Part shown: one piece after another, positions 19,720 to 36,435 of the stretch
Layout of the letters: each line of letters opens with the position of its first letter
Position numbering within the stretch: position 1 is the first letter of the stretch
Assembly (NCBI GenBank): GCA_964230865.1
Contig: CAXRJK010000128.1
Coordinates: 1-44,346 of the forward strand
Length of the DNA: 44,346 nucleotides
DNA from: Winogradskyella sp.
GTDB lineage: Bacteria > Fidelibacterota > Marinisomatia > Marinisomatales > AB-629-J13
Reading direction: 5' to 3'
The notes under the pieces: generated by a model
The model's input: the letters and a program-made list of their open reading frames with translations, nothing else
Database searches by the model: none
Told to the model about the DNA's origin: nothing
Position numbers and translations under genes: made by a program

Positions 19720-19738
19720 TTTTTATTTACTCCTTTTA

Positions 19739-21886
19739 TTATTTAATAACTAAAAATTTTCCTTCTTTAATCTTTCCATAAGAATTGCTTTGAGAATCTA
19801 AATTTTCTACTGTAAAAAGGTAGAGCCCCGATGCAATCGCTTGATCATTTTGGGTAATCAAATCCCAAGCGTGCTGACCTCCACTTAACACGGGATTTTG
19901 ATTTGAATTTATATTTCTTACATCTCCACCTATATAATCTTGGTCATGAAATAGGATATCTATTGGATCACCGGAAAGAGTGAAAATCCGAATCTCGGCT
20001 TTCTGTGGAAGACCCTGAAACCATATCATCCTTTCACGGCTTCCATAATCATCCCACTTTGCCTGTCCACGGTAGGGGTTTGGATAGACTGTGGGTTGCC
20101 ATGTCGATTCTTCACTTTGTGACTGAATCCCAGGATATACATAAACTCGATTTCCATATTTTGAGCTTTCAAGTGAACCGAGATTTGCTGCAGGATCTCC
20201 CCGATCAAATGCTGTAACGGAATAATAGTTTAGCCATCCATTTTTTACTCCCTCATTCACAAATTTATAATGATAGTAATTTCCATCAATTAAAATACTA
20301 TCAGGATCTCCAAACTCATTAACAATTTTTACAGGTTCAAACCCTGTATTATAGCCAATTTCTAATGATTCTTCATCTGCCCTATCAAACTCAGCTAACA
20401 AAGAAAATTCTTCGGTATCGTCTCCAACAGTTCTCTTTGCTCCATATATCCGATAGCCCTCAAAATCTTGTTCTCTACTAATTGGATCAATGAATGGTTC
20501 TGAGTTCTTCTGCCAGAAAATAGTCACCTTTTGGTCTCCTACTTCCACTGCCATATTTGGAATTGGTGGGGGCTCAGGAAGAATATAGCGATCTATTTCT
20601 CCGTTATTGTTTAAATCTTCACCTTCATCTAGAATATTGTTTCTGTTTTTATCCTCTCCATCATAAGCTCTCTGTGCCCAGTCTGCATTCACTATAAGAT
20701 TTGACCTTCTTTCCGGAGAGTCAGAGCCAGAGCCCTTCCACAGCCCACACACAACTGCAAATGCGATTGTACAGGATTCACCGGGGGGTAGGACTGATGT
20801 GGAATCCTCTCTTATTTGACTGCCGAATGGTCCAGCAGACAACATGAATAGCCAACTGTTCGTTTTGGAAGGGTAACCATCTGAATTATATAAATCTGAA
20901 TCGCTACCTTTTGGGACACTTGAACTTAAAAGCTCATATCTATCATCATCATTCAATGCCATAGAGTAATTAGGATAATCTTGATTATTTGAATTAGTCC
21001 AGACCCATTGATTATAATAGGAATTAATAATAGGTCGGGATATTGTACTGCCCAATAATGAAATCCCTATGTAAGACTCTGCCCAACCGTCATCACCATC
21101 TGCATCATACTGGTAAGCGATATCCCTTGAGAATCCAGATTCATCTAAAGATTCATCAAAGCCATCCAAATTATCGTACCAGGTAAATCCACTTCCTGGT
21201 TCGTATTTATTGGTATAGTTCATATTGGCTACGGAAGCGTCTGTCCAAATTCCAGCATATAGATCATCAATTGTCTCAGTGGAGTGGTTTGTTATTGTAT
21301 AATTCAAAATAACAAAAGCATCAGCAAACGAAAAATTCCAGGCATAGGTTTCCAGATGAACAGAAATTCCCAGTGGAGTGTGATCGGTAATATTATTATC
21401 ATCTTCGGTTGTTGAGCCATAATCTCTAAAATTTGTCATAAAATCCTGATGAGATACAGCGAAAGGGGAATAAAATTGCGCCATAGAATCCTGAGATGTA
21501 GAGCTAATGGAAGACCGAATATCCATACCGGATGTTGCAAAAAACTCAAACCCTACATCTCCTGCTTCAAACACACCGTCCACTATTGAGGTGGACACTC
21601 GTGGAATTCCATTGACTTTACCTCCTATCCATAATCCCGCAAAAGAGAAATGCTCTACTTGGTCACGTTGAATCGAGGTGTGCTGTTTATATTGACAGGA
21701 AGGAAGAATACGCTCATTTATTGGGTTCCAACCATTGCCAAGAACACCAAAGTTAGTAACGGTCATCCCCAACTGTCCAACAGTAGTAACTTTATCAAAA
21801 ATATCTGGTGATAGCTGTGCTCTAGAGTGAGTAATAAGATTAAATGCTAATATCCATATTGTAAAATTGGAAGCACGAATCCTCAT
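19739..21886 (-). CDS. T9SS-sorted secreted protein of unknown function (FN3-like region, Ca-binding-like acidic loop, C-terminal sorting domain)
   Basis: Signal peptide ..HSRA/QLS and an acidic loop DKNRNNILDEGEDLNNNGEIDRY. The C-terminus VYPNPYRGQ...AEIRIFTLSGDPI...GLYLFTVENL...GKFLVIK is T9SS/FlgD-Ig-like. I saw no catalytic motif. Confidence 0.6.
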   Translation of the reverse strand: MRIRASNFTIWILAFNLITHSRAQLSPDIFDKVTTVGQLGMTVTNFGVLGNGWNPINERILPSCQYKQHTSIQRDQVEHFSFAGLWIGGKVNGIPRVSTSIVDGVFEAGDVGFEFFATSGMDIRSSISSTSQDSMAQFYSPFAVSHQDFMTNFRDYGSTTEDDNNITDHTPLGISVHLETYAWNFSFADAFVILNYTITNHSTETIDDLYAGIWTDASVANMNYTNKYEPGSGFTWYDNLDGFDESLDESGFSRDIAYQYDADGDDGWAESYIGISLLGSTISRPIINSYYNQWVWTNSNNQDYPNYSMALNDDDRYELLSSSVPKGSDSDLYNSDGYPSKTNSWLFMLSAGPFGSQIREDSTSVLPPGESCTIAFAVVCGLWKGSGSDSPERRSNLIVNADWAQRAYDGEDKNRNNILDEGEDLNNNGEIDRYILPEPPPIPNMAVEVGDQKVTIFWQKNSEPFIDPISREQDFEGYRIYGAKRTVGDDTEEFSLLAEFDRADEESLEIGYNTGFEPVKIVNEFGDPDSILIDGNYYHYKFVNEGVKNGWLNYYSVTAFDRGDPAANLGSLESSKYGNRVYVYPGIQSQSEESTWQPTVYPNPYRGQAKWDDYGSRERMIWFQGLPQKAEIRIFTLSGDPIDILFHDQDYIGGDVRNINSNQNPVLSGGQHAWDLITQNDQAIASGLYLFTVENLDSQSNSYGKIKEGKFLVIK

Positions 21887-21985
21887 GTTATTTTAATTCT
21901 TTTCAATAGGAACACCTTGGCTTTTTAAACAAGCGTGGTTCGGAATGTAAAAAGGGAATTGATTTATTTCAATACTAAAACAAGA

Positions 21986-22969
21986 TCAGAAAGAAAACTT
22001 CCAAACCACGGGTCTGTGATCTGAGACCAATGCATCATAATCTGTCCACCCATTTGGAAAGTAATCTTCAATTCTAATAGTAGTTACTGTTGAAGCATTA
22101 CCTTCAAATTCATCAAATAGATTATTGGTAATAAGGATATGATCAATATGACTAGGCCACGTGGGATAGGACCAGTGGGCCCAGTGCTGACCATTTTTCC
22201 CACTAATCGCTAATTCCATATCAATAAATTTAAAGTTGCTTGAGTTTTTAATAAAATTTGAAAACACATTGGAGACCTCGGGTTCATGGATATCATCATT
22301 AAAATCCCCTAATATAATGGTATTAGAATCCCAAAAATTGTTCAATACATAATCTTCTAAAAGTAGTGATGCTGCTTGTCTGCGAGCTTCTTCATCATCA
22401 TCATCAGGTATATCCATGATCCCATCCATATCAATATCAATGCTATCAATCTCGTCGTTCCCACAGCATTTTAAATGGTTATTGATGAGGATAATTGAAT
22501 TTTCATTAAAATCGCCTTTAAATATGAAAGGCTCACGCGGAAATGCAGAATTCTCATCGTGATATATTTCAAATACATCCGTGAAATCTATAGTATTAGA
22601 TTTATAGATATATGCCAACCCATAGCTACCACCTAGAGTCTTAACTCCTACCCAATCGTTTTCCCCATCTAGCTGATTGCAACGGTTAACCAAAGCAGTA
22701 AAGTATGATCCAGAGTTAATTTCCTGTAACCCAGCTATATCACAATCTAATTCGACTAGTATTTGAGCAACATATTCGACCGTATTATCTTCTGCTTTGG
22801 GAAAGGTCTCAAGGTTCCAAGTTAATACCTCAAATGTATCATCTGTTCCAAACGATAAACCAGAAAATTGAGAATTTGAAATTGAATTAAGTTTGTCTTC
22901 TGCGCAGGAATAAAACAAAAGAATAAAAAAGACAATTTGAACCTTCCATTGGTTAATCAAATGGAACAA
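21986..22969 (-). CDS. Endonuclease/exonuclease/phosphatase (EEP) family lipoprotein, likely a secreted nuclease
   Basis: Lipobox LFYS/C. The EEP motifs are intact: LTWNLETFP, DIAGLQEI, INNHLKCCG, ILGDFNDD, IDHILIT, VSDHRPVVWKF. The RRQAASLL helix after the HLK motif resembles ExeM/NucH-type EEP domains. An acidic insert reads DIDMDGIMDIPDDDDEE. Confidence 0.75.
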   Translation of the reverse strand: MFHLINQWKVQIVFFILLFYSCAEDKLNSISNSQFSGLSFGTDDTFEVLTWNLETFPKAEDNTVEYVAQILVELDCDIAGLQEINSGSYFTALVNRCNQLDGENDWVGVKTLGGSYGLAYIYKSNTIDFTDVFEIYHDENSAFPREPFIFKGDFNENSIILINNHLKCCGNDEIDSIDIDMDGIMDIPDDDDEEARRQAASLLLEDYVLNNFWDSNTIILGDFNDDIHEPEVSNVFSNFIKNSSNFKFIDMELAISGKNGQHWAHWSYPTWPSHIDHILITNNLFDEFEGNASTVTTIRIEDYFPNGWTDYDALVSDHRPVVWKFSF

Positions 22970-24872
22970 AGCCCAACATCACCGGACGGTGGTCAGAAAT
23001 ATACTTTTCATAAATCGAAAATCCGCCAAGGTAATCTTCAATGAACAAAGTTTCAGCACGATTGATTTTTGATCTTGGAATCATGTGTTTTGAAACAAGA
23101 ATATGATCCAAAAAACTTATATAAGGTTCTTTAGGATATGATGCCTTTGACCTATCATAAACTAGCTCTTGGTTAATAAAATAAAATCGATTGTCATCAA
23201 TAAATGGATGAAAACAATGTTCTGAATCTTTATCCTTTAAGTCATCATTCCAGTCCCCAAGCACTATAAAGTTATTATACCCTGATTCCATTTCCTCATC
23301 TAAATATTTATGAAGCATAAGAGCTGCTTTCTGCCTGCGCTTCAATCCCGAGTCACAACACTTCATATGGAGGTTTATAACCGAAAAGTTCAACACCTCT
23401 TCCCCACATCGGTATTGAAAGTCTCCTCGTAAGGGAGGCCTACCCGCAAAATTATAATCATCCTCGGCAAATATTTCTGACTGATTCACTAGTGTAAACA
23501 TATCTTTTTTATAAATAATGGCCTGATCCATAAAAGATGACTGCTGGGATACAATAAAATCATAATTTGGTAGGCGACTCATAAGACTGCTGAAAAACCC
23601 TGTGAATCGTATTTCCTGAAATGCAATCATATCAGCATCCATTCCATCAATAACACTTGCTAATACTGGAACTGTAGAGTCCGGATGAGCAGGGAAAAAT
23701 TCTGTGTTCCATGTAATTATTTCTATTTCGTCTTGTTTATTTACATTTAAGGTAGGATTAGTGTGAATTAAATTTGAAGTTTTTTCACATTGAGTTGATA
23801 TTTCATAAGGGATCTTCCATTTTGGAGGACCGTAAACTTTTTTCAAAGACCAGTCTAAATGAGACTGAATCCACTTACTCATGTGTGTATCATAGGTAAA
23901 ATCATCTGCCAGAAGTGTTTGCCCTACCCTTCCATCAACAACAGATTCATACCCTATGAAATGATGTGATTTTTCATCAAAGTGTAATTGAATATGCCCA
24001 AACTCAGTACCCCCGCCATAATTTTGAAAAATATACACATGGCTGTGGGGATCGTACCAGGGCGTAGGATACCCCTTACTAACTCCCCCTGAAACGATAA
24101 GATCCACACCTTCAGAAAAATATCCTAACTCCAGGGCATTGTTTATGTTTTCCTGAGATTTTGATTTTACTCTTACTGAATCAAGAAATTCTTTATATAC
24201 CTCTTCTCTATCCCAAGGAACCCCCAAGCTAGTAAGAACGATTATGATATCTGCTCCATTTTTTTTCATTTTGGGGACCCAGTAATCTAAAGTTTCTATT
24301 TCCGATTGAAATGTAAATCCTAATCTGTTTTGTTCTAACACAACCTCGTCCAACTTTTTGGGGACTATCCCTATAATACCAACTTGAACTCCCGATTTTG
24401 GAATTATTGTATAAGGCTTTATATTATCAAAGTTTTTTCTATTTTTTAAATTTGATATAAGAAAAGGAAAATCTGCGAGCTCATTTAGTTTCAATAAATT
24501 ACTTGCCCCCCCTATAAAATCATATCCCCCTGGAACCAGCGCATCGTATTTGATGTGGTTCATCCATTCAATCATTGTCCTTCCGCTGTCTGCAAGTCCA
24601 AAAGGGTGTCCCTGAAAAAAGTTTCCACCCTCTAACAAAAGAACATCCTCATTTGTGGAGCTAACATCCTGCCTTAGTTTTTGGATATAAGAATAGAGAG
24701 CTGAACCATCCAAAATATCTGGAGGATATTCGGGATTCATAAACCATGCTTTTTGACCCACTATTTGACCATGAAGATCATTTGTAGTAATGAGATTGAC
24801 CACTATCTGATCTTCGGAAGCCGAAGCACTTAAAACTACAAAACTACAAAATAAAAAAAAATTATTTTTCAA
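22953..24872 (-). CDS. Fusion protein: degenerate 5'-nucleotidase/metallophosphoesterase-like N-domain plus an intact EEP nuclease-like C-domain
   Basis: The N-domain aligns by eye to UshA but keeps only the first motif (TTNDLHG). The others are changed: GGDxxTG becomes EGGNFFQG, GNHEFD becomes PGGYDF, THMGH becomes LTSLGV, and GGHSQ becomes SGGVSK. The C-domain is intact (ITWNTEFFP, MIAFQEI, NLHMKCC, VLGDWNDD, LDHILVS, ISDHRPVMLGF). Confidence 0.75.
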   Translation of the reverse strand: MKNNFFLFCSFVVLSASASEDQIVVNLITTNDLHGQIVGQKAWFMNPEYPPDILDGSALYSYIQKLRQDVSSTNEDVLLLEGGNFFQGHPFGLADSGRTMIEWMNHIKYDALVPGGYDFIGGASNLLKLNELADFPFLISNLKNRKNFDNIKPYTIIPKSGVQVGIIGIVPKKLDEVVLEQNRLGFTFQSEIETLDYWVPKMKKNGADIIIVLTSLGVPWDREEVYKEFLDSVRVKSKSQENINNALELGYFSEGVDLIVSGGVSKGYPTPWYDPHSHVYIFQNYGGGTEFGHIQLHFDEKSHHFIGYESVVDGRVGQTLLADDFTYDTHMSKWIQSHLDWSLKKVYGPPKWKIPYEISTQCEKTSNLIHTNPTLNVNKQDEIEIITWNTEFFPAHPDSTVPVLASVIDGMDADMIAFQEIRFTGFFSSLMSRLPNYDFIVSQQSSFMDQAIIYKKDMFTLVNQSEIFAEDDYNFAGRPPLRGDFQYRCGEEVLNFSVINLHMKCCDSGLKRRQKAALMLHKYLDEEMESGYNNFIVLGDWNDDLKDKDSEHCFHPFIDDNRFYFINQELVYDRSKASYPKEPYISFLDHILVSKHMIPRSKINRAETLFIEDYLGGFSIYEKYISDHRPVMLGFVPFD

Positions 24873-24880
24873 TTAATAAG

Positions 24881-26206
24881 TCAGATTGTATAGGAAATTG
24901 ACAGCATAAAATTGAATTTAGATTCTGTAACTCTATCAAGAGAGGGACGAACATCATTTTCAACAGGGAAGAGGTCAGGATATTTATATTGTCCGGATTG
25001 AAATCCAAGCCCTACATCAACCTGCAATTCATCAAATGATTTCCCTGTTCCTACAGTAATGGTTGTTTGTGGATCCATTACCTGGAATGGTGATTGATTA
25101 TATACCATCCCAACTCTCACAGGAATTTTATTTGTAGCCATATATTCAATCCCTAGGTGCCATGAATTGGTTTCATTTATTTGAAAAATTTCATCATTCT
25201 TTAAGGCAATTGAATAGCCATCGGTAGTCGTAAAATCAGCCACAACATACACAGGCGTCCTGCCATAGGTAGTATATGAAATTCCAAAAGATTTTCGAGC
25301 CGGTTTTACATAGCTGATTCCAGCTAAATGATAGCTCAATGTATCACCACTAAAAAAACCTGGGAGGCCTGAAGTAACATCCAACAGTGGAGGGTTGTAG
25401 GAGTCAGATTCAATTTTTAGTTCTGTATCTATGGAAAATGAAAAATGAATATTCTTCCATGTATTCAATTCAATGCTATAACTGAGGAATCCACCCTTTG
25501 GAGTAAAAACAATCTCACTAATGGGATTAATAGTTGCTAGGTATCCGTCCATATTTCTCAATGTATCAACCTGAAAAACATCATGGATCGATGATTCTGA
25601 AACCTTATGATATGCTAATCCCCAATTCATTGTAAATTTTTCATCCATCAAATATCTGATTCCTAATCCAATAGAAATTTTATCTAATTGTCCATGTACC
25701 TCATAATAGTGAAACCCTAATAAGGGATCTTTATTCCCAATTATTCCATCATCAAAACTTAAGCTTCCTCTAATCTCCTCCTCATATTTGTATGCGAAAG
25801 ACGTTAGCGGGTCTGAAGAAATAGCAGCTGTTAACCTATATAATCCCATCGTCTTAGATCCAGATATGCCTATCCCTTGGAAAAATCTGTTAGTTTGATT
25901 TACTACATAATCTGATGTGGTAAGATAATCACCAAAAAAATCTTTTAAATCAAACCCTCTACGCTCCAAAATTGAATTTCCACTTAAATGATATTCAAAC
26001 GAAAAGTCAGCGGGGAGCCTCCATAATCCTGCAGGGTTTAGCAGCAGTAATCGAGTGGATCTATCACTGTGTACAGTATTACCCATTCCAAATGAACGGG
26101 CTGAACCAAGATAGGGATTGGACCCTGTGATTCGATTAAAATATGATTGAGAGATTCCCACTGAGACACAAAAGAATAAAACCAGAAGAAAAACTTTTTC
26201 TCTCAT
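24881..26206 (-). CDS. PorV/FadL-like outer-membrane barrel paralogue
   Basis: I prefer the ATG at 26206 (MREKVFLLVLFFCVSVGIS/QSY) over the track start at 26287, which would overlap the upstream gene by 77 bp. The N-terminus PYLGSARSFGMGNTVHSDRSTRLLLLNPAGLW fits the PorV-type pattern. The C-terminus ..MLSISYTI is beta-barrel-like. Confidence 0.55.
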   Translation of the reverse strand: MREKVFLLVLFFCVSVGISQSYFNRITGSNPYLGSARSFGMGNTVHSDRSTRLLLLNPAGLWRLPADFSFEYHLSGNSILERRGFDLKDFFGDYLTTSDYVVNQTNRFFQGIGISGSKTMGLYRLTAAISSDPLTSFAYKYEEEIRGSLSFDDGIIGNKDPLLGFHYYEVHGQLDKISIGLGIRYLMDEKFTMNWGLAYHKVSESSIHDVFQVDTLRNMDGYLATINPISEIVFTPKGGFLSYSIELNTWKNIHFSFSIDTELKIESDSYNPPLLDVTSGLPGFFSGDTLSYHLAGISYVKPARKSFGISYTTYGRTPVYVVADFTTTDGYSIALKNDEIFQINETNSWHLGIEYMATNKIPVRVGMVYNQSPFQVMDPQTTITVGTGKSFDELQVDVGLGFQSGQYKYPDLFPVENDVRPSLDRVTESKFNFMLSISYTI

Positions 26207-26210
26207 TAAT

Positions 26211-28688
26211 CTATATTGCATAGTCAATCTGAAGTCTAAAGTCTGATTCACTTTCATTGACCACCGGTCTAGAGATCCATCTTCCACTATCAGATTTTCC
26301 CGAAGTGATAGATGAATAAGAGTCGTATCCGGTGAAGCTGACTTTTAATTTTATTGTAAAATTATTAACGGGTGAACACTGCCAAGAGACCCAAGAATGC
26401 ATTGCACCATGTTGTGCTGAAAATATTCGAAAATCTGTATCTTCAAAATTCCATAAAAATCCCTGAATGAACAAAACACCACCTTTCAATGTCATTGCAT
26501 CAGAAAAATTATGAGTACCGCTTATGCCAATTGTCTCATCAGGAGAACCAATATCTCCAACCTTCATTTCTGCACCAGAACTTACTGATTCAGTGAGTCT
26601 TGGCCTTGGGGAAAATGTTGTATATCCCCGGGAGTACAATAGCTCTAGCTGATTAAAGCGAGACAACCTGAGACGAAAACGAATTCGTGTTTCTCTGGAA
26701 TCAAAAGGACTTGGGTGAAATATATCAAAAGAGCCACGCTCCTGCCATTTCTGGCGGATGTTAATTCTGTAATTAAATACCGGTCTCCAATCAACAGACA
26801 AAACAGTACGATAGTATTTAGCATCATCTGCTTTTCGTGTCCAGGTATCCCAATTTATATAGCTTACTAATGATCTGTGAAATTGATATCGAGTGAAAAA
26901 ATAAAAACCCTGTTCAGACTGAGGTTGTGGATTTCCTGAGTACAGGAAACTATACACAGGATCTTCCAGCCAATAACCATCTTCAAAAATGGATGTTTTA
27001 AATCTCTGATAGTTTGAAAATGATCTCTGGTAAGGGTTATCAAATTCCAGATCGTAATCACGATACAACACTAAAAAGTTTAAATTATCAAATTGCGCAT
27101 AAAGGCTGGTTACAAATGCATTTGGCACTTCATTAAATTTAAAAAAGTTAGAGCCTTTTGATATTTCGCCGTACTCCCCCTGAATGGACATATTTCCTAA
27201 TACAAAACCATAATCAAAACCCAAAACCCTTCGATAGCTTTGGGCATCTTTCCAGATTGGAGAGGAACCGTTTGATTGATACATTGCTGCAATTTCCGGG
27301 TCTGCAGAGTTAGACATGTAAGAGAGATAAAAAGCATCCCCCGAATACTCGTCATAATCATTGGTATTGGAAGCTAAATCAAAATCAGGTTCATTATCAT
27401 CTGCACCACCGGTAACTGACTGAACAACCTGAGGGGATAGAATCCGATCATATAGACTTTCATACACGGTAATCCCAACATGCAGTCCGACAATCGGCAT
27501 AACTCTTACATTTCCACCCCAAGTCATTTCGGTCACCGATGAAGTAAGCGGAGAAATAATTTTTAGGGAATCATTGTTAGCTCCCATTGGAAGCCTAGGT
27601 TGCATGACAATCAATGATGTAAAAGAACTGTCTCTGTTAATAATTGCATCTCGGGGGGCCTTGGATATAAAAAATGCGGTACGAAACAACGAATTGGAAA
27701 ATTGAACTGCTAAACCATTTAAGATATATTGGCTAGATCTAGTCACATCCGCATTAACTCCATTAGCTTTTTTTGTAAATCCAAATCCTGTTCGTCGTGG
27801 AGTAAAATAATCCCCCGTTTCAAAAACAACTCCCTGTCCAAAAGCTGCAGAAAAGTTTCCTAAAATAAATTTATCTAATCGAATAGCACCCAAATCTATA
27901 TTTTCTACAAGGCCATATATTTTTTTTGTATAAATACCTTTGGGATTCCCCATATTCTGATAATGTGATAATCCCATTTTAATATGGTTACCATATTGTA
28001 AAGATAACTTCTGAAATAGTTCAGGTCGACTTGAGTTTTTGAAAGCTAATATAGTACCTTCATTATCAGGGTTTGTTGTAACGGGTACCGTCCGAATTAA
28101 TTGGGAGTATCGACCATGAAGTTGGGGCTTACTTTCAGTTCGCGACTCAAAATCTACAAAATCAATCAAATTTCTATATCCCCAATAGCTAATTCCTGGA
28201 GCATTCCTTAATTCAAAAGAACCTTTTATTTCTCCTATTCTCTGTTGTTTCATCACTGCTGCGACATCAATGGGACTCAAATTGGGCAAAGCGCTCAGCT
28301 CATCATACGACATTTCATTTATATTCCCCGGTTTGAAAATTCTATCCAACCATATATCTGAAAGACCTTCCTTGCTTCCCTCAGATGCCAACCACTGCTT
28401 GACTTTGTATGAGGATAAATTCTGTTCCCGAATAAAGGATGATTGCTCCCGAGGGAAGATCTCAACTAAAGGTTTTATTTTATTTATATCAATGATTGTA
28501 AGACTTTCAATTTCTAATAAATCATAAATAGTATCAATTCCATTTCTCTGACTTATAAATATTCGTATATCCTCTTTTTGTTTTTCAGATAGAGGTAAAC
28601 TATTTAATTGTTCTCCGTCAGTATTATTTAAATCAATATCTGCCAAAAGTAAAACAGGCAGAAGTAAAATTATTTCAATCCTTTTCAT
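26211..28688 (-). CDS. Large outer-membrane beta-barrel protein with two N-terminal ComEA-like helix-hairpin-helix domains
   Basis: Signal peptide ..LLLA/DID with two HhH units at aa 17-75 and 120-180. The remaining ~640 aa are rich in alternating aromatic/small residues and Y/F/W-ended strands, and end ..FRLQIDYAI. Confidence 0.65.
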   Translation of the reverse strand: MKRIEIILLLPVLLLADIDLNNTDGEQLNSLPLSEKQKEDIRIFISQRNGIDTIYDLLEIESLTIIDINKIKPLVEIFPREQSSFIREQNLSSYKVKQWLASEGSKEGLSDIWLDRIFKPGNINEMSYDELSALPNLSPIDVAAVMKQQRIGEIKGSFELRNAPGISYWGYRNLIDFVDFESRTESKPQLHGRYSQLIRTVPVTTNPDNEGTILAFKNSSRPELFQKLSLQYGNHIKMGLSHYQNMGNPKGIYTKKIYGLVENIDLGAIRLDKFILGNFSAAFGQGVVFETGDYFTPRRTGFGFTKKANGVNADVTRSSQYILNGLAVQFSNSLFRTAFFISKAPRDAIINRDSSFTSLIVMQPRLPMGANNDSLKIISPLTSSVTEMTWGGNVRVMPIVGLHVGITVYESLYDRILSPQVVQSVTGGADDNEPDFDLASNTNDYDEYSGDAFYLSYMSNSADPEIAAMYQSNGSSPIWKDAQSYRRVLGFDYGFVLGNMSIQGEYGEISKGSNFFKFNEVPNAFVTSLYAQFDNLNFLVLYRDYDLEFDNPYQRSFSNYQRFKTSIFEDGYWLEDPVYSFLYSGNPQPQSEQGFYFFTRYQFHRSLVSYINWDTWTRKADDAKYYRTVLSVDWRPVFNYRINIRQKWQERGSFDIFHPSPFDSRETRIRFRLRLSRFNQLELLYSRGYTTFSPRPRLTESVSSGAEMKVGDIGSPDETIGISGTHNFSDAMTLKGGVLFIQGFLWNFEDTDFRIFSAQHGAMHSWVSWQCSPVNNFTIKLKVSFTGYDSYSSITSGKSDSGRWISRPVVNESESDFRLQIDYAI
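28148..28640 (-). other. Two ComEA-type helix-hairpin-helix (HHH_3-like) DNA-binding units within the 825-aa barrel protein
   Basis: The units are IDLNNTDGEQLNSLPLSEKQKEDIRIFISQRNGIDTIYDLLEIESLTIIDINKIKPLV and NINEMSYDELSALPNLSPIDVAAVMKQQRIGEIKGSFELRNAPGISYWGYRNLIDFV. Both follow the ComEA layout: (I/V)N(I/L)N, then xxxL..LP(G/N)(I/L)..., then a short region ending in F/I..DLL..., then G(I) and (L)..(V/I). Confidence 0.6.
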
Positions 28689-28694
28689 AAAATA

Positions 28695-29582
28695 CTAATC
28701 ACTAAAATTATATATCAAGCCGGTCTGGTGTACTATTGGCAATACTGGATGGGTAAGCAGTGCATACCCGATTTTAATTTTTGAAACTGATAGAAAACCA
28801 CCAATCCCCAGTCGGTTGGGATTAGATTGTACACCTGCGATTAAATGTATAGAGGGACTTACATCAAAGTGAATGCTACCTTTAATTTGAATGTCTTCGC
28901 CCAATGCTCTCTCAAAAAGAAACGATGTCATGAGCCCCTTAAATGGTGTATAGGAAACTCCAGCTGAGAGCCTTTTTGGCAGGGATTGTTCTGTCCCTCC
29001 TGAACCTATGGTGGATGAAACAGCATTTTTAATCATGGCACCTACTCTGTGCTTGTCACGCAGCGACCCTATAACACCTATATCCAATCCCCACGAATTT
29101 GACATTCCCCCTGGTATCCCATCTGACCCATCTCCTGCTGTACCTGCTGAATGTCCCAAAATCCATGAAAAATGGTTAAGCGTCACCCCCAAAGCCAAAG
29201 TAGAATTCTTATCCTTTTGCAAATTAAATCCATGGGAGATACCAATCCTCTGTTCTGTAGAGAGCTCTACCTTTTCAAAAGTGACTTTTGAAATCTCTGT
29301 AGAAACACCAATTACACCCAACCCTTTAAAGCTCTGAATCCATCCCGCATGCGTATAGGGAATACCATAGAGCTCAGCAGTCCCAACATTTAAAACTTTA
29401 TCAGAGACCTCTGATAAAGTTGCGGGGTTATGAAACAAACTATGAATTCCACCGGTAGTGGGAGTCATAGTTCCAACCGATGCGCTCCCAGAAACTCCTG
29501 TATAAGTATAATCACTCACAGACTGACCTAAAATAACATTGGTCATAAATAGAAAAAATAAAATTGAAATTATATGATTCAA
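28695..29582 (-). CDS. Small PorV/FadL-like outer-membrane barrel paralogue
   Basis: Signal peptide ..VILG/QSV, then GVSGSASVGTMTPTTGGIHSLFHNPATLSE (NPA motif) and a beta-strand periodicity to the end. It is overlapped by 4 bp by the upstream LTD gene. Confidence 0.5.
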   Translation of the reverse strand: MNHIISILFFLFMTNVILGQSVSDYTYTGVSGSASVGTMTPTTGGIHSLFHNPATLSEVSDKVLNVGTAELYGIPYTHAGWIQSFKGLGVIGVSTEISKVTFEKVELSTEQRIGISHGFNLQKDKNSTLALGVTLNHFSWILGHSAGTAGDGSDGIPGGMSNSWGLDIGVIGSLRDKHRVGAMIKNAVSSTIGSGGTEQSLPKRLSAGVSYTPFKGLMTSFLFERALGEDIQIKGSIHFDVSPSIHLIAGVQSNPNRLGIGGFLSVSKIKIGYALLTHPVLPIVHQTGLIYNFSD

Positions 29583-31021
29583 TTTGATTTAACTCCTACA
29601 ACTACCGGAGCATAATCAGTGAATGTTTTTCCTGAATGAAACTGGTTCACTTCAATATGCATTAGGTAAGTACCTGGATTAACTATTTCACCCAGATGGT
29701 TTCTACCATCCCAATCTGATTTATCTTCAACTCTGATTACAGTTCCCGCATTTTCAAAATATCGATCTACCAACGTGGTAACAAATCTACCACTTAAGTC
29801 AAATACCCGAACCACTACCCGTGAATCATCGGGAAATGAATATGTAAAGTCAAGTCTTTCTCCCAGTGTTGGGATCAAAACAAAAGGCGCTGGCTTTATT
29901 TTTGCAGATATTGTCTCCGGATTGGGCTCATACACTCCCTCCTTAAGATAAACATCTGCCTCTAAAATATTATTTGCAGAAGAGATCTCAACCTGCCAGT
30001 TTCCTCTGTAATTATCAACTATACCTCTTGCCTGTATAACATATTCTGCGGGGTTGTAATAATCCACCATATATCCAATAGATGACTGTGCCACATCCCA
30101 ATCCCATATGGTAAGATCCATTCTGAATCCTTCATTATCCTCAATTGTGATCACCTGAGGCCCATTTGAAGATCGCTTATCTCCAAATTCAATAATTAAG
30201 CCCATAATGGTAACATCAAAACCAACGTCATTTTCGGGGTCTCCCTGAATAATGTCTGAGATTTTCCAGAGAGTTTTGGGATTAAACAATATTGCCCAAC
30301 TTTCCAGAAAGTTTTCACTGGTTTCATCATGTCCGGTAATTCCATTCCCTTGAACCAATATTTCATCCACCTCTGAAAAACGGCGTCTCTGATAAATTTG
30401 GTCTCCTGAAATTGAAGGTATTACAGATTGTAATGAAAGTGGGGTATCTGTGTTATAGCCCGGGATATCTGTTTTTGAAACTCCATAGGTTGTATCGCCC
30501 CATAAAAAATAGTCCACATCCTGTACTACTGATTCTCCTTCTGACCATCTGAATAAAATAAGTACTTCAGGATTCTGAAGTATTTCTATGGATGCAAGAT
30601 GATCCCCATATGAAATAGTAGTTTCACCCTCTACTGCCTGTTTCATATTTCCAAATAAGGTAAAATCAGGATATTCATCATAATAGTTGAAATACCTGGA
30701 GCTGTCATGAAAACTCAAAGTAAAACTGCTCCCTGCAGCGATGGTTGTATCTGGAAATCGTGCTATAAAATCATTGATTGAATTACTCCAAAAGTTTTCA
30801 CCTGAGGGAAGGTTGTAATAATAAGAACCTGCTGTTGGCTTGGAAGCATCTGTAATATAATAATCTCCGAGATTTATATCATCTGAAGTAGGATTATATA
30901 TTTCTACCGCTTCACCGTTTGATTCACCAGGACTTATTTTATAAAATATTAAATGATCCGGAGTTTGACAAATAGCAATCACTCCACATAAAGTTACAAT
31001 GAAAATGCTCCGGAAAATCAT
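29579..31021 (-). CDS. Secreted lamin-tail-domain (LTD) protein with an OB-fold-like module and a FlgD-Ig/T9SS-like C-terminal domain
   Basis: LTD signature LIFYKISPGESNGEAVEIYNPTSDDINLGDYYITD. OB-like segment VTIMGLIIEFGD...VITIEDNEGFRMDLTIWDWD...IQARGIVDNYRGNWQVEI. C-terminus RVVVRVFDLSGRFVTTL...WDGRNHLGEIVNPGTYLMHIEV. Confidence 0.65.
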   Translation of the reverse strand: MIFRSIFIVTLCGVIAICQTPDHLIFYKISPGESNGEAVEIYNPTSDDINLGDYYITDASKPTAGSYYYNLPSGENFWSNSINDFIARFPDTTIAAGSSFTLSFHDSSRYFNYYDEYPDFTLFGNMKQAVEGETTISYGDHLASIEILQNPEVLILFRWSEGESVVQDVDYFLWGDTTYGVSKTDIPGYNTDTPLSLQSVIPSISGDQIYQRRRFSEVDEILVQGNGITGHDETSENFLESWAILFNPKTLWKISDIIQGDPENDVGFDVTIMGLIIEFGDKRSSNGPQVITIEDNEGFRMDLTIWDWDVAQSSIGYMVDYYNPAEYVIQARGIVDNYRGNWQVEISSANNILEADVYLKEGVYEPNPETISAKIKPAPFVLIPTLGERLDFTYSFPDDSRVVVRVFDLSGRFVTTLVDRYFENAGTVIRVEDKSDWDGRNHLGEIVNPGTYLMHIEVNQFHSGKTFTDYAPVVVGVKSN

Positions 31022-31079
31022 AAGCGATCTTATAAAAACCTGTATAAGTAAAAACTAGATAGTAAAATGAGAGATTAAC

Positions 31080-34000
31080 TTACTTGATTAGAACCATCTT
31101 TCTCAGCTCAGAATAAGAACCTACCGATAGGTGATACATATATACACCACTTGAAATGTTGGTTCCTCTCTCGTCCGTTCCATTCCACTGAATCGAATGA
31201 ATACCTGGATTTACAAAATCATCAATTAAGGTAAAAACCTTTTTCCCATCTAAGCTAAAAATATGGAGTGAAGTATATGATTCCACTGGCACTCCAAATG
31301 TAATTGTTGTTGTTGAGTTAAATGGGTTGGGGAAGTTCTGATCTAAAGTAATATGATTTGGTATAGTATTAACCTTTTTAAGGTGATAGGCACTGGAAAC
31401 AGGGGAAACCACGACCTCCCCAGATCCTGATAATGAAATAGCCTTTCCAAATTCATCTATCAACTGCCACTGGTCATTTCCAAAGTTCGGATTTATGGAC
31501 CATGATAGCTTAATCTCCGAATTTGTACCCGTTACCATAATTTTATCATCTGAAATCAGGACCTTTTTATCATCTGCAAAACGAACATCAAAAAAATCTG
31601 CTCCTCCATCAGATAAATTTATAGGTGGAAGAGGTGGAAGTGAAAACATATCAAACTTGTCCTGTGAAATTTCAACCCCAAAATATAGCGGGACACCATT
31701 CATAGTCAAGAGAGAAGCATCCGACAAATAGTTTGAGTTAGATATTTTCTCTGAACTTCTATTTTCTGTTGTCAGTGTTATTTCACCAGCACTGTCGGCA
31801 TTCAGCCAGTAGCCTTTTCCTGGCTCAATATCATTTGCCGAAAAATAGGTTGACTCAAAGCCATAAAGAGTACCAGAAACTATTATGTTATCTGGGTCAA
31901 TTACATCGCCAATATTCACGGATACCGAAGGCCCAGATATCAAGTTCCACCCTTCAGAAAGGGTGACTGAGACTGATTCAATTGGTTGCCCAGCAATAAC
32001 CTGGGAACCTGTATTATCGAAATAAAGCCAGTAGCCATTTCCGGGGCTAAACACAGACTCAGAGCTATAGGTATTGCTAAACCCATACATAGTTCCATTC
32101 ACAGATTCAGTAAACACATCAGTATACAAAAAGGATTCCACATTCATAGAAACCCCAACCAGGTTCCAGCCTGACTGAAAGTCAACGTTAATGCTGGACT
32201 CTCCAGATCCTGTGGTAAAATCATTTTCATTTCGGGGATAGAGCTTAAACTCACTATAACTATATCCGATAACTCCGGTAATACTATCATAATAATCACC
32301 TACAGAGATGGTCGGCCAGTTACCATCAAAATAATAATCATCTACCATTGCTGTGCCTGTCCCGTCACTTATTGTCCAATTTCCATACTCATCAACAGAC
32401 TCAAATGTTACATTCGAATAGCTTACCAACATACTCTCATACATCTCCCCAGACTCTGAACACTCAATACCTATTTCGTCCGCAGTAACTGAAGTAGGAG
32501 ATAAATCATTTCCTGAAGATATCAAAGAAGTTGATGACACACTTATTAATTGTGTAAAGCTATAGTATTCATTTACAGTTGCAGTTATCTGTAACTCATC
32601 TCCAACCGATGGAACCACCAATGTATCATAAACAAAAATACCGCTCCAGGTTTCTGTGCTTGGGTCTTGCAAAAAGAAATTTGGATTGTCAGCTGATTTA
32701 ACATGGGTAACTATCCCAGATGTTGTAACAAGTTGACCTGCCATAGGTGTTTCATAGCAATAGTCGCCCTGCTCTGTAGTATACTGTAAATCATATATAC
32801 TTATCTCACTGGGACCTGTGTCTCCACCCATGTCTCCACTATTACGAGGATAAAGCTTAAACTCACTATAACTATATCCGATAACTCCGGTAATACTATC
32901 ATAATAATCACCTACAGAGATGGTCGGCCAGTTACCATCAAAATAATAATCATCTACCATTGCTGTGCCTGTACCATCACTTATTGTCCAATTTCCATAC
33001 TCATCAACAGACTCAAATGTTACATTCGAATAGCTTACCAACATGCTCTCATACATCTCTCCTGATTCGGAGCACTCAATCCCGATATCAATAGCTGAAA
33101 CTGGAATAGGAGAGATAGTATTTTCCGAAGAAACTACCGTAGAGGATACCACATCTATTAACTGTGTAAAACTATAAAATTCATTTACAGTTGCAGTTAT
33201 CTGTAGTTCATCGCCAACCGATGGCGAGACCGATGTGTCATAAACATAAATACCGCTCCATGTAGCTCCATTTGGATCCTGCAAAAAGAAATTTGGACTG
33301 CTGGCTGAATTAACATGAGTAACTATTCCAGATGTTGTAACAAGTTGGCCAGCCAAAGGTGTCTCATAGCAATAGGCACCTTGCTCTGTAGTGTACTGTA
33401 AATCATATATAGTTTGATCTGCCATTAAAATTAAAATAGAAACCTCATCCGTATCCATAGCGCCTTGGTCATCAAATACGGTTAATCTAAATACCATCGT
33501 TGTACTCACATCTGGCGCAGTAAAGGTAACAATTGCTTCTTCATAATCACTGAGGGTGACAGCCTCACCTGAAATCTGCTCCCACAAAAATCCTGAAATT
33601 GTACCATCAGGATCTGAACTCCCACTACCATCTAGGGTAACGACAGCTCCGTGCTCGACCATCTGATCTTCTCCAGCATTTGCGATCGGGAGCTGGTTTC
33701 CGCCCGTTGCGACAAAGTCACTTGTAAAACAAGGTAAAAGCTGATATCCTTCAGTGTAGGGTTCAGACGAATCATATTGACCAGCAACTCCTGTTACGTT
33801 TGCAGGCCACGATGGTTCATCAGTTCCATCAATCTCAGTATCGCTATCTATCCGCATGGTCGCTGTACCTGAACCTCCATCAACAATAGTTAAATTTTCA
33901 GAAGACCCCTCAGAGGGCCAAACGCCATCGATAACTGTCACACTTTGAATTGTTATCAGTTCACTTTCATAAGATTCACCATTTATTGATAAATCAGAAA

Positions 34001-35144
34001 CAGTTACCAGCTGAGCTTCTGGGAGAGCCCCCTGTCCCATAACCGCTATATCATTTTCTGAAGAAACCAGAACTTCAAATTTTCCATTGAATTCATCTGT
34101 TAATCCTGAGACCTGTATCAAATCACCGTAGCTCAAATCAACATCAAAACCAACTCCAAAAACCACAAGCCCTGCCGTATCATCCTGAATTACATATTCT
34201 GTATTCCCATTTCCCTCTTGAAAATTAATCGAGATAACAACTCCTTGGACCATTACCGCTGCCCCAACACCCATATTCCTTGCGCTTAAAATTGACATTT
34301 GATCTATGACATTTACTGACGTTACGTCTGTGGCTGAATTGCCTTCGCTATCGTAAACTGTCAACTCAAATTCTAGCGCTCCTCCCTCGCTTGGAGCAGT
34401 AAATGTCGCTTCCGCACTCTCAGAACCACTTATTGAAACAGATGTACCAGAGATCTGAGTCCATATATAAGCTATGATATCACCTGCAGATCCAGAGCCA
34501 TCAAGAGAAACCAATTCCCCTGGTAATACCAGCTGGTCATCCCCCGCATCTACAATTAAAACAGTTCCACCATAATCGTGTGAGCCTAAATAATCAAAAG
34601 TGTTTTGTGGATATACCAACCACTCTGAGTTAGATGCTGTTGTGCCAGCAGAGGAATCCCAATCTGTGTTCCCTTGAGAAACATTTGGCATTCTAACCAG
34701 CGTATGCTCTTTTGTTCCATTTGTCACGCCAGCCACATCCCAACCGCTTCCAGGGTCATCACCTGACTCCCCTATAGCATCAATCAAAATAAAGTTTCCA
34801 GACCCATCATTTTTTGCCAATCCTTGAGCATCATCACCATTATGATAGAGTGTAATAAGTAAATCTGCATGAGCTGTCATAGCTGGGTCAGCATCCTCAT
34901 GGCACACAACAAAAACATCGCCAGGTGCTAATTGTCCACTGATATCCACTGTATACTCAGGCCAATCTCCCCCATTTGAGATTTGCCAAAGCTGATATTC
35001 ACTTAAATCAATTGTTGCGTCAGTGGGGTTATAAATCTCCAGAGCTTTATTATAGCTGCTTCCTTCAATATATTCTGAAAAAAATAAATCCTGAGCTAAT
35101 AGGGTAGATAGCAATAATAGTGGAAATAAGACATAATTTTTCAT
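31080..35144 (-). CDS. Giant T9SS-sorted surface protein: ExeM/NucH-type LTD, two PKD-like domains, three OB-fold-like modules (two as a tandem duplicate), GWNL/GYW module, type-A T9SS C-terminal domain. No nuclease domain.
   Basis: Signal peptide ..TLLA/QDL. The N-terminus LFFSEYIEGSSYNKALEIYNPTDATIDLSEYQLWQISNGG...GDVFVV...HNGDDAQGL...DAIGESGDDPGSGW...TLVR is the ExeM/NucH-style LTD. PKD-like units include DAGDDQLVLPGELVSLDGSGS and ANAGEDQMVEHGAVVTLDGSGSSDPDG. The C-terminal 87 aa (31083-31343), NFPNPFNSTTTITFGVP...GVYMYHLSVG...RKMVLIK, form the sorting domain. Confidence 0.8.
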   Translation of the reverse strand: MKNYVLFPLLLLSTLLAQDLFFSEYIEGSSYNKALEIYNPTDATIDLSEYQLWQISNGGDWPEYTVDISGQLAPGDVFVVCHEDADPAMTAHADLLITLYHNGDDAQGLAKNDGSGNFILIDAIGESGDDPGSGWDVAGVTNGTKEHTLVRMPNVSQGNTDWDSSAGTTASNSEWLVYPQNTFDYLGSHDYGGTVLIVDAGDDQLVLPGELVSLDGSGSAGDIIAYIWTQISGTSVSISGSESAEATFTAPSEGGALEFELTVYDSEGNSATDVTSVNVIDQMSILSARNMGVGAAVMVQGVVISINFQEGNGNTEYVIQDDTAGLVVFGVGFDVDLSYGDLIQVSGLTDEFNGKFEVLVSSENDIAVMGQGALPEAQLVTVSDLSINGESYESELITIQSVTVIDGVWPSEGSSENLTIVDGGSGTATMRIDSDTEIDGTDEPSWPANVTGVAGQYDSSEPYTEGYQLLPCFTSDFVATGGNQLPIANAGEDQMVEHGAVVTLDGSGSSDPDGTISGFLWEQISGEAVTLSDYEEAIVTFTAPDVSTTMVFRLTVFDDQGAMDTDEVSILILMADQTIYDLQYTTEQGAYCYETPLAGQLVTTSGIVTHVNSASSPNFFLQDPNGATWSGIYVYDTSVSPSVGDELQITATVNEFYSFTQLIDVVSSTVVSSENTISPIPVSAIDIGIECSESGEMYESMLVSYSNVTFESVDEYGNWTISDGTGTAMVDDYYFDGNWPTISVGDYYDSITGVIGYSYSEFKLYPRNSGDMGGDTGPSEISIYDLQYTTEQGDYCYETPMAGQLVTTSGIVTHVKSADNPNFFLQDPSTETWSGIFVYDTLVVPSVGDELQITATVNEYYSFTQLISVSSTSLISSGNDLSPTSVTADEIGIECSESGEMYESMLVSYSNVTFESVDEYGNWTISDGTGTAMVDDYYFDGNWPTISVGDYYDSITGVIGYSYSEFKLYPRNENDFTTGSGESSINVDFQSGWNLVGVSMNVESFLYTDVFTESVNGTMYGFSNTYSSESVFSPGNGYWLYFDNTGSQVIAGQPIESVSVTLSEGWNLISGPSVSVNIGDVIDPDNIIVSGTLYGFESTYFSANDIEPGKGYWLNADSAGEITLTTENRSSEKISNSNYLSDASLLTMNGVPLYFGVEISQDKFDMFSLPPLPPINLSDGGADFFDVRFADDKKVLISDDKIMVTGTNSEIKLSWSINPNFGNDQWQLIDEFGKAISLSGSGEVVVSPVSSAYHLKKVNTIPNHITLDQNFPNPFNSTTTITFGVPVESYTSLHIFSLDGKKVFTLIDDFVNPGIHSIQWNGTDERGTNISSGVYMYHLSVGSYSELRKMVLIK
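32231..33410 (-). repeat. Intragenic tandem direct duplication: two 568-bp units with a 612-bp (204-codon) period, each encoding one OB-like module of the 1354-aa protein
   Basis: gcttaaactcactataactatatccgataactccggtaatactatcataataatcacc... occurs at 32243 and again at 32855. The first ~200 bp of each unit differ at about 3 positions. The rest is clearly diverged while staying in frame. Confidence 0.9.
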
Positions 35145-35276
35145 AATTAATAATTCCTGTTTTATATTTATAAAATCAAATGTAAATAATATAAATTAAG
35201 TTGAACTGAAGTGCTGTCGAACAATGGTTCAAAATTCCGCAATTCTTCTTCTGGAAATTAAGGAATAATATATTTA

Positions 35277-35438
35277 AAATGCAGAAAATGTGAGTGTTTT
35301 TATTCCCAACGAACCTGTCTTGATCCAGTACCCCTCCCAAGGTTTTAGGTCAGAAATTAAAACATAGGTATCGTCAAAAGTGTAAAATGTTCCTAGAGTA
35401 ATGATTCCTTCAGAATCACTAATATCCGGGTATAAATT
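35277..35438 (-). pseudogene. Relic fragment of the GWNL/GYW surface-protein module. It has no start codon and no signal peptide, and is open for 54 codons immediately after, and in frame with, the asparaginase stop.
   Basis: My translation is NLYPDISDSEGIITLGTFYTFDDTYVLISDLKPWEGYWIKTGSLGIKTLTFSAF*. Ungapped against EIVDVNSIIVSGTIYGFDGTYQNSSILEPGKGYWMNANDDGDITLSL of the 1419-aa protein, it gives about 20/47 identities, including G-T-x-Y-x-F-D-x-T-Y and P-x-x-G-Y-W. Confidence 0.45.
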
Positions 35439-36419: not shown

Positions 36420-36435
36420 AAATATACCTCAGTTT

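Follow-up and report, generated by a model that had tools for sequence, protein, structure and literature searches.

A predicted 24-strand outer-membrane barrel with fused ComEA-type helix-hairpin-helix units, encoded in a candidate DNA-scavenging operon of Marinimicrobia

We analysed a 44,346-nucleotide stretch of DNA from a member of the Fidelibacterota (assembly GCA_964230865.1, contig CAXRJK010000128.1), hereafter called the window, and in particular its gene at positions 26211 to 28688. This gene codes for a protein with two ComEA-type helix-hairpin-helix (HhH) units, at residues ~17-75 and ~120-180, in front of a very large predicted outer-membrane beta-barrel, an architecture announced by a preliminary description of the window and borne out by family profiles, AlphaFold2 (AF2) models and Foldseek comparisons. 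The protein belongs to an uncharacterised family and represents a nucleic-acid-utilization/DNA-uptake variant not previously described; our literature searches returned no description of an HhH/ComEA-barrel fusion or of a Marinimicrobia DNA-uptake system. We propose, with the chances of being right or wrong about evenly balanced, that it is the large, TonB-independent outer-membrane component of an operon for scavenging extracellular DNA, with a built-in periplasmic ComEA-like capture domain. The features of the gene and its product are as follows.

26211..28688, minus strand: whole gene of the HhH-barrel protein, 825 aa, with an ATG start and its stop codon at 26211-26213 (open reading frame (ORF) list and translation)
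28641..28688, minus strand: type I signal peptide, aa 1-16 (MKRIEIILLLPVLLLA), no lipobox Cys, read from the sequence
28464..28640, minus strand: HhH unit 1, aa 17-75, ComEA-type (HhH)2 with degenerate hairpins P-L-S and S-L-T (family profile, AF2 helices at aa 25-71)
28332..28463, minus strand: inter-unit linker, aa 76-119 (SYK..W...EG..EGLS..WLDR), conserved and acidic, with low predicted local distance difference test (pLDDT) scores
28149..28331, minus strand: HhH unit 2, aa 120-180, hairpins N-L-S and G-I-S, HHH_3 score of 16.5 bits
26214..28121, minus strand: predicted 24-strand outer-membrane beta-barrel, aa 190-825 (AF2 secondary structure, Foldseek)
26883..27068, minus strand: superfamily signature, aa 541-602 (YRDYDLEFDNPYQRSFSNYQRFK...PQPQSEQGFYFFTRYQ), covering strand 13, loop 7 and strand 14, the most conserved segment

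The plus strand of the same interval contains many stop codons. The predicted signal-peptide cleavage site lies between MKRIEIILLLPVLLLA and the D that follows it, and the AF2 model places a helix at residues 2-13. The gene is 100% identical to one on contig DEAI01000040.1 of Candidatus Marinimicrobia bacterium UBA2986, and an identical protein is also present in the public protein collection. Translation confirmed the announced C-terminus, ...FRLQIDYAI. Outer-membrane beta-signals usually end in Trp or Phe; other Marinimicrobia members of the family end in I, L, Y or F, and the distant relatives all end in W or F.

In the full-length AF2 model (pLDDT 73, predicted template modelling score 0.70, 50-sequence alignment), 24 strands are found between residues 190 and 824. 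Eleven of the strand connections are 2-5 residues long and the alternating ones are mostly long (23, 40, 38, 70, 45, 25 and 26 residues). With a signal peptide, an even number of strands, and short turns alternating with long loops, the model displays the hallmarks of an outer-membrane barrel. The top Foldseek matches are all outer-membrane barrels, and the C-terminal region is predicted to form a membrane barrel, as had been proposed. The PDB matches of the barrel include SlpA/SDBC, the Occ porins, Wzi, MtrB, the FimD/PapC ushers and TonB-dependent transporters, with template modelling (TM) scores of only 0.2-0.3, indicating that it has no close structural relative. At the sequence level, no Pfam or NCBIfam family covers the barrel of the window protein, no Pfam family covers that of six distant relatives, and a family profile searched against the PDB sequences matched HhH domains and nothing in the barrel.

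The best-conserved parts of the barrel are loops 7 and 3 rather than its strands. In the signature, which comprises loop 7, residues R543, P552, R555, E592 and G594 are invariant across phyla. Loop 7, with 11 aromatic residues out of 45 and the motif YRxYDxxYDNPYxRxF...PxPKxExG, shows a column identity of 0.86 within Marinimicrobia and 0.60 across phyla. Loop 3 has an identity of 0.78 and the motif SPRRTGFGF. AF2 is unsure about both loops. At the level of sequence comparison, this pattern of conservation suggests a gate, a substrate site or an interface with a partner.

The segment that follows strand 1 is the 23-residue loop, and the HhH units end about ten residues before that strand. Because short turns alternate with long loops, as in standard outer-membrane protein topology, both termini of the barrel are expected on the periplasmic side, and with them the HhH units. 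The model thus indicates that these units are probably periplasmic, and that a DNA-tethering anchor at the cell surface is unlikely. The suggestion that the protein serves either as a conduit for DNA or oligonucleotides or as a DNA tether is therefore only partly retained: a conduit equipped with a periplasmic capture domain is plausible, and a surface tether is unlikely given the strand, loop and turn pattern with its periplasmic N-terminus.

ComEA is a periplasmic or membrane-anchored DNA receptor of competence systems, and ComEA-type HhH units known elsewhere are sequence-independent binders of double-stranded DNA. In the AF2 model of residues 17-185 (pLDDT 78), the two units, at pLDDT of about 80-90, form two four-helix modules. 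Both units thus appear to adopt the (HhH)2 fold, which consists of two helix-hairpin-helix pairs per ~60-residue unit. The top Foldseek match of this model is ComEA of G. stearothermophilus (8dss_B, probability 1.0, root-mean-square deviation of 2.1 A over 65 columns), followed by the ComEA-related 2duy of T. thermophilus, then PsbU, RuvA, XPF and DisA; the E-values are weak (>=0.02) because the domain is small. Through unit 1, the family profile matched human EEPD1 in its HhH repeats (9yi2, E 5e-11) as well as the ComEA structures 8dfk/8dss (E 9e-7).

Two findings for this protein run counter to the HhH assignment, and both had been named beforehand as grounds for rejecting it. In Pfam scans, the full-length 825-residue protein has no HHH_3 match at E<=0.1, and its isolated N-terminus scores 16.2-16.5 bits, for unit 2 only and with no match for unit 1, which is below the gathering threshold of 27 bits. 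Nor are there any GhG hairpins, as those of unit 1 read P-L-S and S-L-T and those of unit 2 N-L-S and G-I-S. At the level of the family, on the other hand, all 29 N-termini match HHH_3 at E<=0.01 (best 1.3e-13), and the distant relatives have two HHH_3 stretches each (E 1e-6 to 1.5e-20), the second of which corresponds to unit 2. The assignment is therefore below threshold for this sequence alone and solid for the family, based on family profiles and the predicted fold. A census of hairpins showed that the degenerate forms are kept throughout the Marinimicrobia clade, and that distant relatives carry G-h-S/T.

Unit 1 is variable within the family (mean column identity 0.49), and unit 2 is well conserved (0.78), with the near-invariant motif NINxMxYDxLxxLPNLSPIDVxAV...PGISYWGYRNLxDF. 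Within the linker, the family alignment shows Y94, K95 and W99 to be invariant and W113 near-invariant. The distant relatives harbour, between unit 2 and strand 1, a helical insert of ~40-70 residues with a conserved 'GW' motif (L..GW......L), which is absent from the Marinimicrobia clade. One protein from an NCBI metagenome-assembled genome (MAG), P0205 (1251 aa), shares the two HhH units and the barrel but carries in front of them an additional N-terminal TPR region of ~430 residues, which, as judged from its sequence, is a second kind of predicted periplasmic accessory domain on the same barrel.

The family is widely distributed. A word-indexed search yielded 369 relatives, the best 120 of which are all full-length (about 800-880 residues) and come from marine metagenomes and from MAGs of Marinimicrobia and the Fibrobacterota-Chlorobiota-Bacteroidota (FCB) group. 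Among species-representative genomes, 232 stretches contain a relative, and we kept 80 of them; the named records among these best 80 of 232 are nearly all Marinimicrobia, Neomarinimicrobiota or Fidelibacterota. An exhaustive profile search gave 155 clusters at E<=1e-30. The same architecture was found in the sampled distant members, from WOR-3, TA06, Candidatus Edwardsbacteria, Fermentibacteraceae, Gemmatimonadota and Candidatus Caldipriscus.

The preliminary description had placed the gene next to nuclease genes, and Pfam and NCBIfam scans confirmed that genes for EEP, 5'-nucleotidase, LTD/OB and ExeM/NucH-like proteins adjoin it. The neighbours most relevant here are listed below.

31080..35144, minus strand: LTD, DUF5689, PKD and ExeM/NucH-like protein of 1354 aa with a C-terminal domain for the type IX secretion system (T9SS), predicted to act as a secreted or surface nuclease
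29579..31021, minus strand: LTD and OB-fold protein whose C-terminal tail is of the T9SS type, predicted to bind DNA at the surface
28695..29582, minus strand: small barrel of 295 aa, upstream partner, weak PorQ and PorP/SprF matches
24881..26206, minus strand: FadL/TodX/PorV-family barrel, downstream partner, likely start at M28 of the listed ORF
22953..24872, minus strand: 5'-nucleotidase-type metallophosphatase fused to an EEP nuclease, 639 aa, signal peptide present, T9SS tail absent, predicted periplasmic
21986..22969, minus strand: EEP nuclease (ExeM/NucH- and MnuA-like) of 327 aa, possible lipoprotein signal

These genes are tightly packed, with 6 nucleotides between the stop codon of the small-barrel gene and the start of the HhH-barrel gene, and the likely start of the downstream barrel gene lying 4 nucleotides past the stop codon of the latter. 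A scan of positions 19000-36500 for sigma-70 promoters and intrinsic terminators gave counts not above those of shuffled sequences. The family profile of the downstream barrel matched structures of TbuX, FadL, TodX and PorV (E 1e-9). That of the small upstream barrel had no match among the PDB sequences, and the nature of this protein is deduced from its weak PorQ/PorP matches and from hhalign comparison with the FadL-like neighbour. The gene had been described as lying between barrel paralogues. The two flanking barrels are indeed mutual paralogues (hhalign 97%), but the HhH-barrel protein is not related to them: it gave <1% with hhalign against either neighbour family and no BLASTP match, and its membership in the FadL, PorV, PorQ or PorP families was discarded on the same grounds. 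The 327-residue EEP nuclease starts with ...FFILLFYSCAEDK, a possible lipoprotein signal in which acidic residues right after the Cys resemble the surface-export signal of Bacteroidota, and this enzyme may, from its sequence, be exposed at the surface instead of being periplasmic.

We then compared 80 Marinimicrobia loci with relatives of the HhH-barrel protein at 38-100% identity, counting each neighbour over the loci with enough flanking sequence. The gene order, strand included, is near-invariant: LTD/OB protein, small barrel, HhH barrel, FadL-like barrel and 5'-nucleotidase/EEP fusion. The FadL-like barrel (67/67 loci) and the LTD/OB protein (62/62) are always in place, the small barrel in 70 of 71 loci and the 5'-nucleotidase/EEP fusion in 59 of 60; the LTD nuclease of the 1354-residue type was found in 45 of 46 loci and the EEP nuclease of the 327-residue type in 47 of 54. 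Co-occurrence with LTD/OB and EEP genes, which had been put forward as a check, is therefore near-invariant across these loci, and the cassette recurs in other phyla with different enzymes. Two of the loci, L023 (NZUB01000052.1) and L034 (NZRO01000045.1), come from MAGs titled Flavobacteriales bacterium, yet the cassette that they contain is of the Marinimicrobia type, fully syntenic and 49-53% identical, and these contigs are probably mislabelled or mis-binned.

Outside Marinimicrobia, the loci of WOR-3 (L088) and of the NCBI MAG GCA_054040215.1 (L084) code for an OB/DUF5689 protein, a protein of ~285 residues, the HhH barrel, a protein of 362-392 residues, a PLD-type nuclease and a protein of ~300 residues. 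The latter resembles the metallophosphatase half of the 5'-nucleotidase/EEP fusion of the window in L084 and has no family match in L088. The Edwardsbacteria locus (L086) comprises genes for a Big_5/OB protein, a small barrel, the HhH barrel, a 405-residue protein and a 5'-nucleotidase, with a DHH phosphoesterase nearby, and in Fermentibacteraceae the succession is a small protein, the HhH barrel, a 382-residue protein and a 5'-nucleotidase. The genes found in place of EEP lie at 15581-17074 of L086 for the DHH phosphoesterase, and at 13621-14199 of L084 and 11505-12086 of L088 for the PLDc_2 nuclease. The non-orthologous exchange of hydrolases around a constant trio of barrels is strong evidence that this trio acts on nucleic acids or nucleotides.

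We considered the established classes of outer-membrane DNA transporters and of large barrels in turn. Membership in the TonB-dependent transporters of the DdbC/SusC type was rejected, since the protein has no Plug or TonB_dep_Rec match, an HhH N-terminus and 24 predicted strands instead of 22; no plug domain was detected in the Pfam and NCBIfam scans, and a TonB box was not searched for. The same scans revealed no secretin family, and the predicted fold is a monomeric barrel, which excludes a PilQ-type secretin and upholds the distinction from PilQ-dependent uptake drawn in the preliminary description. The two systems share a putative transfer of DNA through the outer membrane towards a ComEA-type binder; the PilQ secretin of the type IV pilus machinery is, however, multimeric. 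An usher was ruled out as well, as no usher domain is present. The 24-strand PapC/FimD ushers, MtrB, SlpA/SDBC and the TonB-dependent transporters, all among the Foldseek matches, are comparable in strand number and size, but with TM scores of 0.2-0.3 and no sequence relation to the HhH-barrel protein, which is devoid of usher, plug and SLH domains.

The closest known systems are the ddb loci of Bacteroidota and the related transformation genes of Riemerella anatipestifer. The ddbABCDEF genes and their R. anatipestifer counterparts code for secreted nucleases, a DUF5689 binder (DdbD) and an outer-membrane barrel (DdbC); a distinct periplasmic protein of ~300 residues with three HhH motifs is, in addition, essential for transformation in R. 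anatipestifer (bioRxiv 10.1101/2025.03.18.642099; PMC8459023). The overall logic is the same, with nucleases that are secreted or displayed at the surface, a DUF5689/OB protein that binds DNA there, a barrel in the outer membrane and further nucleases in the periplasm, and the window also codes for DUF5689 proteins and a DdbC-type receptor. From sequence comparisons, a Ddb-like locus composition is found both in the window and in other phyla, with a transporter that appears to be of a different type. DdbC is a TonB-dependent transporter with CarboxypepD_reg and plug domains, whereas the HhH-barrel protein has no plug, 24 predicted strands and no match to TonB-dependent receptors in Pfam or NCBIfam. 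Its HhH units are fused to the barrel, unlike in the ddb and Riemerella systems, and two barrels of the FadL/PorV type are its constant partners.

Similarities to ComEA (8dfk, 8dss, 2duy) comprise the (HhH)2/HHH_3 fold, the inferred periplasmic compartment and the proposed role in DNA retention (PMC3879209). ComEA nonetheless has a G-I-G hairpin and the K62/K63 pair, in contrast with the two units fused to a barrel described here, whose hairpins are N-L-S, G-I-S, P-L-S and S-L-T and in which I-D (unit 2) and K-Q (unit 1) are present instead of the Lys pair. The context of ComEA is competence, and that of the HhH-barrel protein is catabolic. The best profile match of the N-terminal units is human EEPD1, the hairpins of which, G-V-T and G-L-S, are likewise not of the G-h-G type. 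EEPD1 combines HhH and an EEP nuclease in one polypeptide, and this coupling occurs at the level of the operon in the window. EEPD1 is, however, a soluble eukaryotic repair nuclease, whereas the HhH units studied here are carried by a membrane barrel and the EEP domains by separate proteins.

Taken at face value, these observations suggest the following scheme. Proteins with LTD, OB and DUF5689 domains, exported by the T9SS, would bind extracellular DNA and cleave it at the cell surface, and the fragments would traverse the outer membrane via the 24-strand barrel, with the aromatic- and Arg-rich loops 3 and 7 acting as a gate or a binding site. The HhH modules would hang from the periplasmic rim, where they might retain the incoming strand or dock digesting enzymes. 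Back-diffusion would be blocked as in the ratchet model of ComEA (PMC3879209), and the strand would be handed over to the periplasmic EEP nuclease and 5'-nucleotidase, yielding nucleosides and phosphate. Binding and hydrolysis, rather than TonB, would give the process its direction. In a more ambitious version, which we consider somewhat unlikely, the HhH barrel, the two FadL/PorV-type barrels and the surface OB/DUF5689 binder would form a third outer-membrane nucleic-acid machine, independent of both the type IV pilus/secretin and the TonB-dependent DdbCD systems. This machine would draw its power from a periplasmic ComEA-like ratchet of its own, coupled to hydrolysis, and would be common among uncultivated FCB-related phyla, the abundant ocean clade SAR406 among them.

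Several points weigh against the proposed role in DNA scavenging. Neither G-h-G hairpins nor the Lys pair of ComEA are present in the HhH units. In V. cholerae ComEA, the K62/K63 pair is needed for DNA binding, and the K63E substitution abolishes binding and uptake (PMC3879209). The equivalent pair, located by motif register without structural superposition, is I140-D141 in unit 2 and K36-Q37 in unit 1; the superfamily alignment shows D141 to be near-invariant across phyla. An Asp at the K63-equivalent position makes the canonical DNA contact doubtful, and DNA binding by the HhH units may, on these sequence grounds, be lost or non-canonical. The net charge of the units (-6 and -3) is uninformative as a proxy for DNA binding, given that the HhH domains of ComEA are themselves at -2. 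The window also codes, at 10163-12979 on the minus strand, for a DdbC-type TonB-dependent receptor (CarboxypepD_reg and Plug), which could be the real importer of DNA or oligonucleotides. In addition, the Caldipriscus locus has no nuclease neighbours, and none were seen in the truncated Gemmatimonadota locus. Finally, no member of the family has been experimentally characterised.

With these reservations in mind, we weighed other roles for the protein. It might be the platform of a three-barrel complex that holds T9SS-delivered surface nucleases and binders, in the manner of PorV, PorQ or PorP, its HhH units making contact with periplasmic proteins or the cell wall. The flanking genes belong to the FadL/PorV/PorQ/PorP superfamily and the surface proteins of the operon bear T9SS C-terminal domains, in line with such a scaffold. 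The degenerate hairpins and the Asp at the K63-equivalent position fit it as well, as does the conservation of unit 2 and the linker, which goes far beyond the needs of a non-specific DNA binder; HHH_3 domains, moreover, are also found in proteins not known to bind DNA, such as PsbU, which is among the fold matches, and this is also a point against DNA capture. We nevertheless hold a scaffold to be unlikely, since 24 strands are far more than an anchor needs, the long loops are the best-conserved segments of the barrel, which suggests a functional pore or binding site, and the barrel has no detectable relation to its PorV/PorQ/PorP-type neighbours. Tight linkage to nucleotidases that have a signal peptide only, and are thus predicted to be periplasmic, fits transport. 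Alternatively, the substrate might be small, with DNA fully digested outside the cell, the barrel serving as a channel for nucleotides, nucleosides or phosphate and the HhH units having no role in translocation. OprP and Tsx are phosphate- and nucleoside-selective porins, and the conserved Arg- and aromatic-rich loops are reminiscent of proteins of this kind; a 5'-nucleotidase is also always adjoining. Such an end-product channel appears improbable to us, because a barrel of 24 strands is not needed for small solutes, for which the FadL-like neighbour would make a more natural channel, and because those nucleases and the nucleotidase that have no T9SS tail look periplasmic, implying that a polymeric or oligomeric substrate reaches that compartment.

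A pore for natural transformation, independent of pili and secretins, in which the fused ComEA-like domain passes long DNA on to ComEC, is a quite improbable option in our view. It finds an echo in the IMG and NCBI annotation pipelines, which label relatives 'DNA uptake protein ComE-like' or 'ComEA family DNA-binding protein', but these automatic names are based solely on the HhH match. Transformation of R. anatipestifer does require an outer-membrane barrel and, as a protein of its own, a periplasmic HhH protein, and the Ddb loci are evolutionarily linked to that system. The loci described here are nevertheless dominated by degradative enzymes (two EEP nucleases and a 5'-nucleotidase, with PLD and DHH enzymes in relatives) that would destroy transforming DNA, and Pfam scans of the window ORFs of at least 100 residues revealed no competence family (ComEC, DprA, ComF) and no pilus family. 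Export of DNA or of another polymer is very improbable: large barrels with periplasmic accessory domains are often polymer exporters, and Wzi, BcsC and ushers are among the fold matches, but the cassette has no synthesis or export genes and its partners are all hydrolases and binders of nucleic acids.

If the DNA-scavenging proposal is correct, a conserved, phylum-wide operon dedicated to the capture, import and breakdown of DNA would help to define the niche of Marinimicrobia. Dissolved DNA is a major marine reservoir of phosphorus and nitrogen, and Marinimicrobia (SAR406) are abundant uncultivated heterotrophs of deep waters. The protein is a good candidate for a new bacterial route to DNA fragments as food. 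With a ComEA-type domain covalently linked to a barrel, the idea of a periplasmic ratchet becomes directly testable in a single polypeptide. No Pfam or NCBIfam model exists for the barrel of this family, which owes its names solely to the HhH match in at least seven lineages: Marinimicrobia/Fidelibacterota, WOR-3, TA06, Edwardsbacteria, Fermentibacteraceae, Gemmatimonadota and Caldipriscus.

Other genes of the window and of related loci deserve mention. The DdbC-type receptor encoded at 10163-12979 has the same domain make-up as DdbC and RA0C_RS04915 of R. anatipestifer, and its gene is followed by that of a FadL/PorV-like barrel (9165-10166, minus strand). In one Fidelibacterota locus (L064), such a receptor and FadL/PorV-like pair is found directly upstream of the cassette, and weaker receptor matches occur within 10 kb in L023, L036 and L045. 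The gene at 15460-19719 (minus strand) codes for a 1419-residue protein in which an N-terminal c-type cytochrome domain (PSCyt1/Cytochrome_CBB3) is joined to an OB fold, three stretches of DUF5689 and a C-terminal T9SS sorting domain; it is unusual to find a haem domain on a protein predicted to bind DNA at the surface. The 320-residue product of the gene at 38104-39066 (minus strand) has a weak DUF5723 match. Lastly, the 715-residue protein encoded at 19739-21886 (minus strand) has only a weak PorZ-like C-terminus and a T9SS-like tail as recognizable features, and its gene is kept beside the cassette in close relatives.

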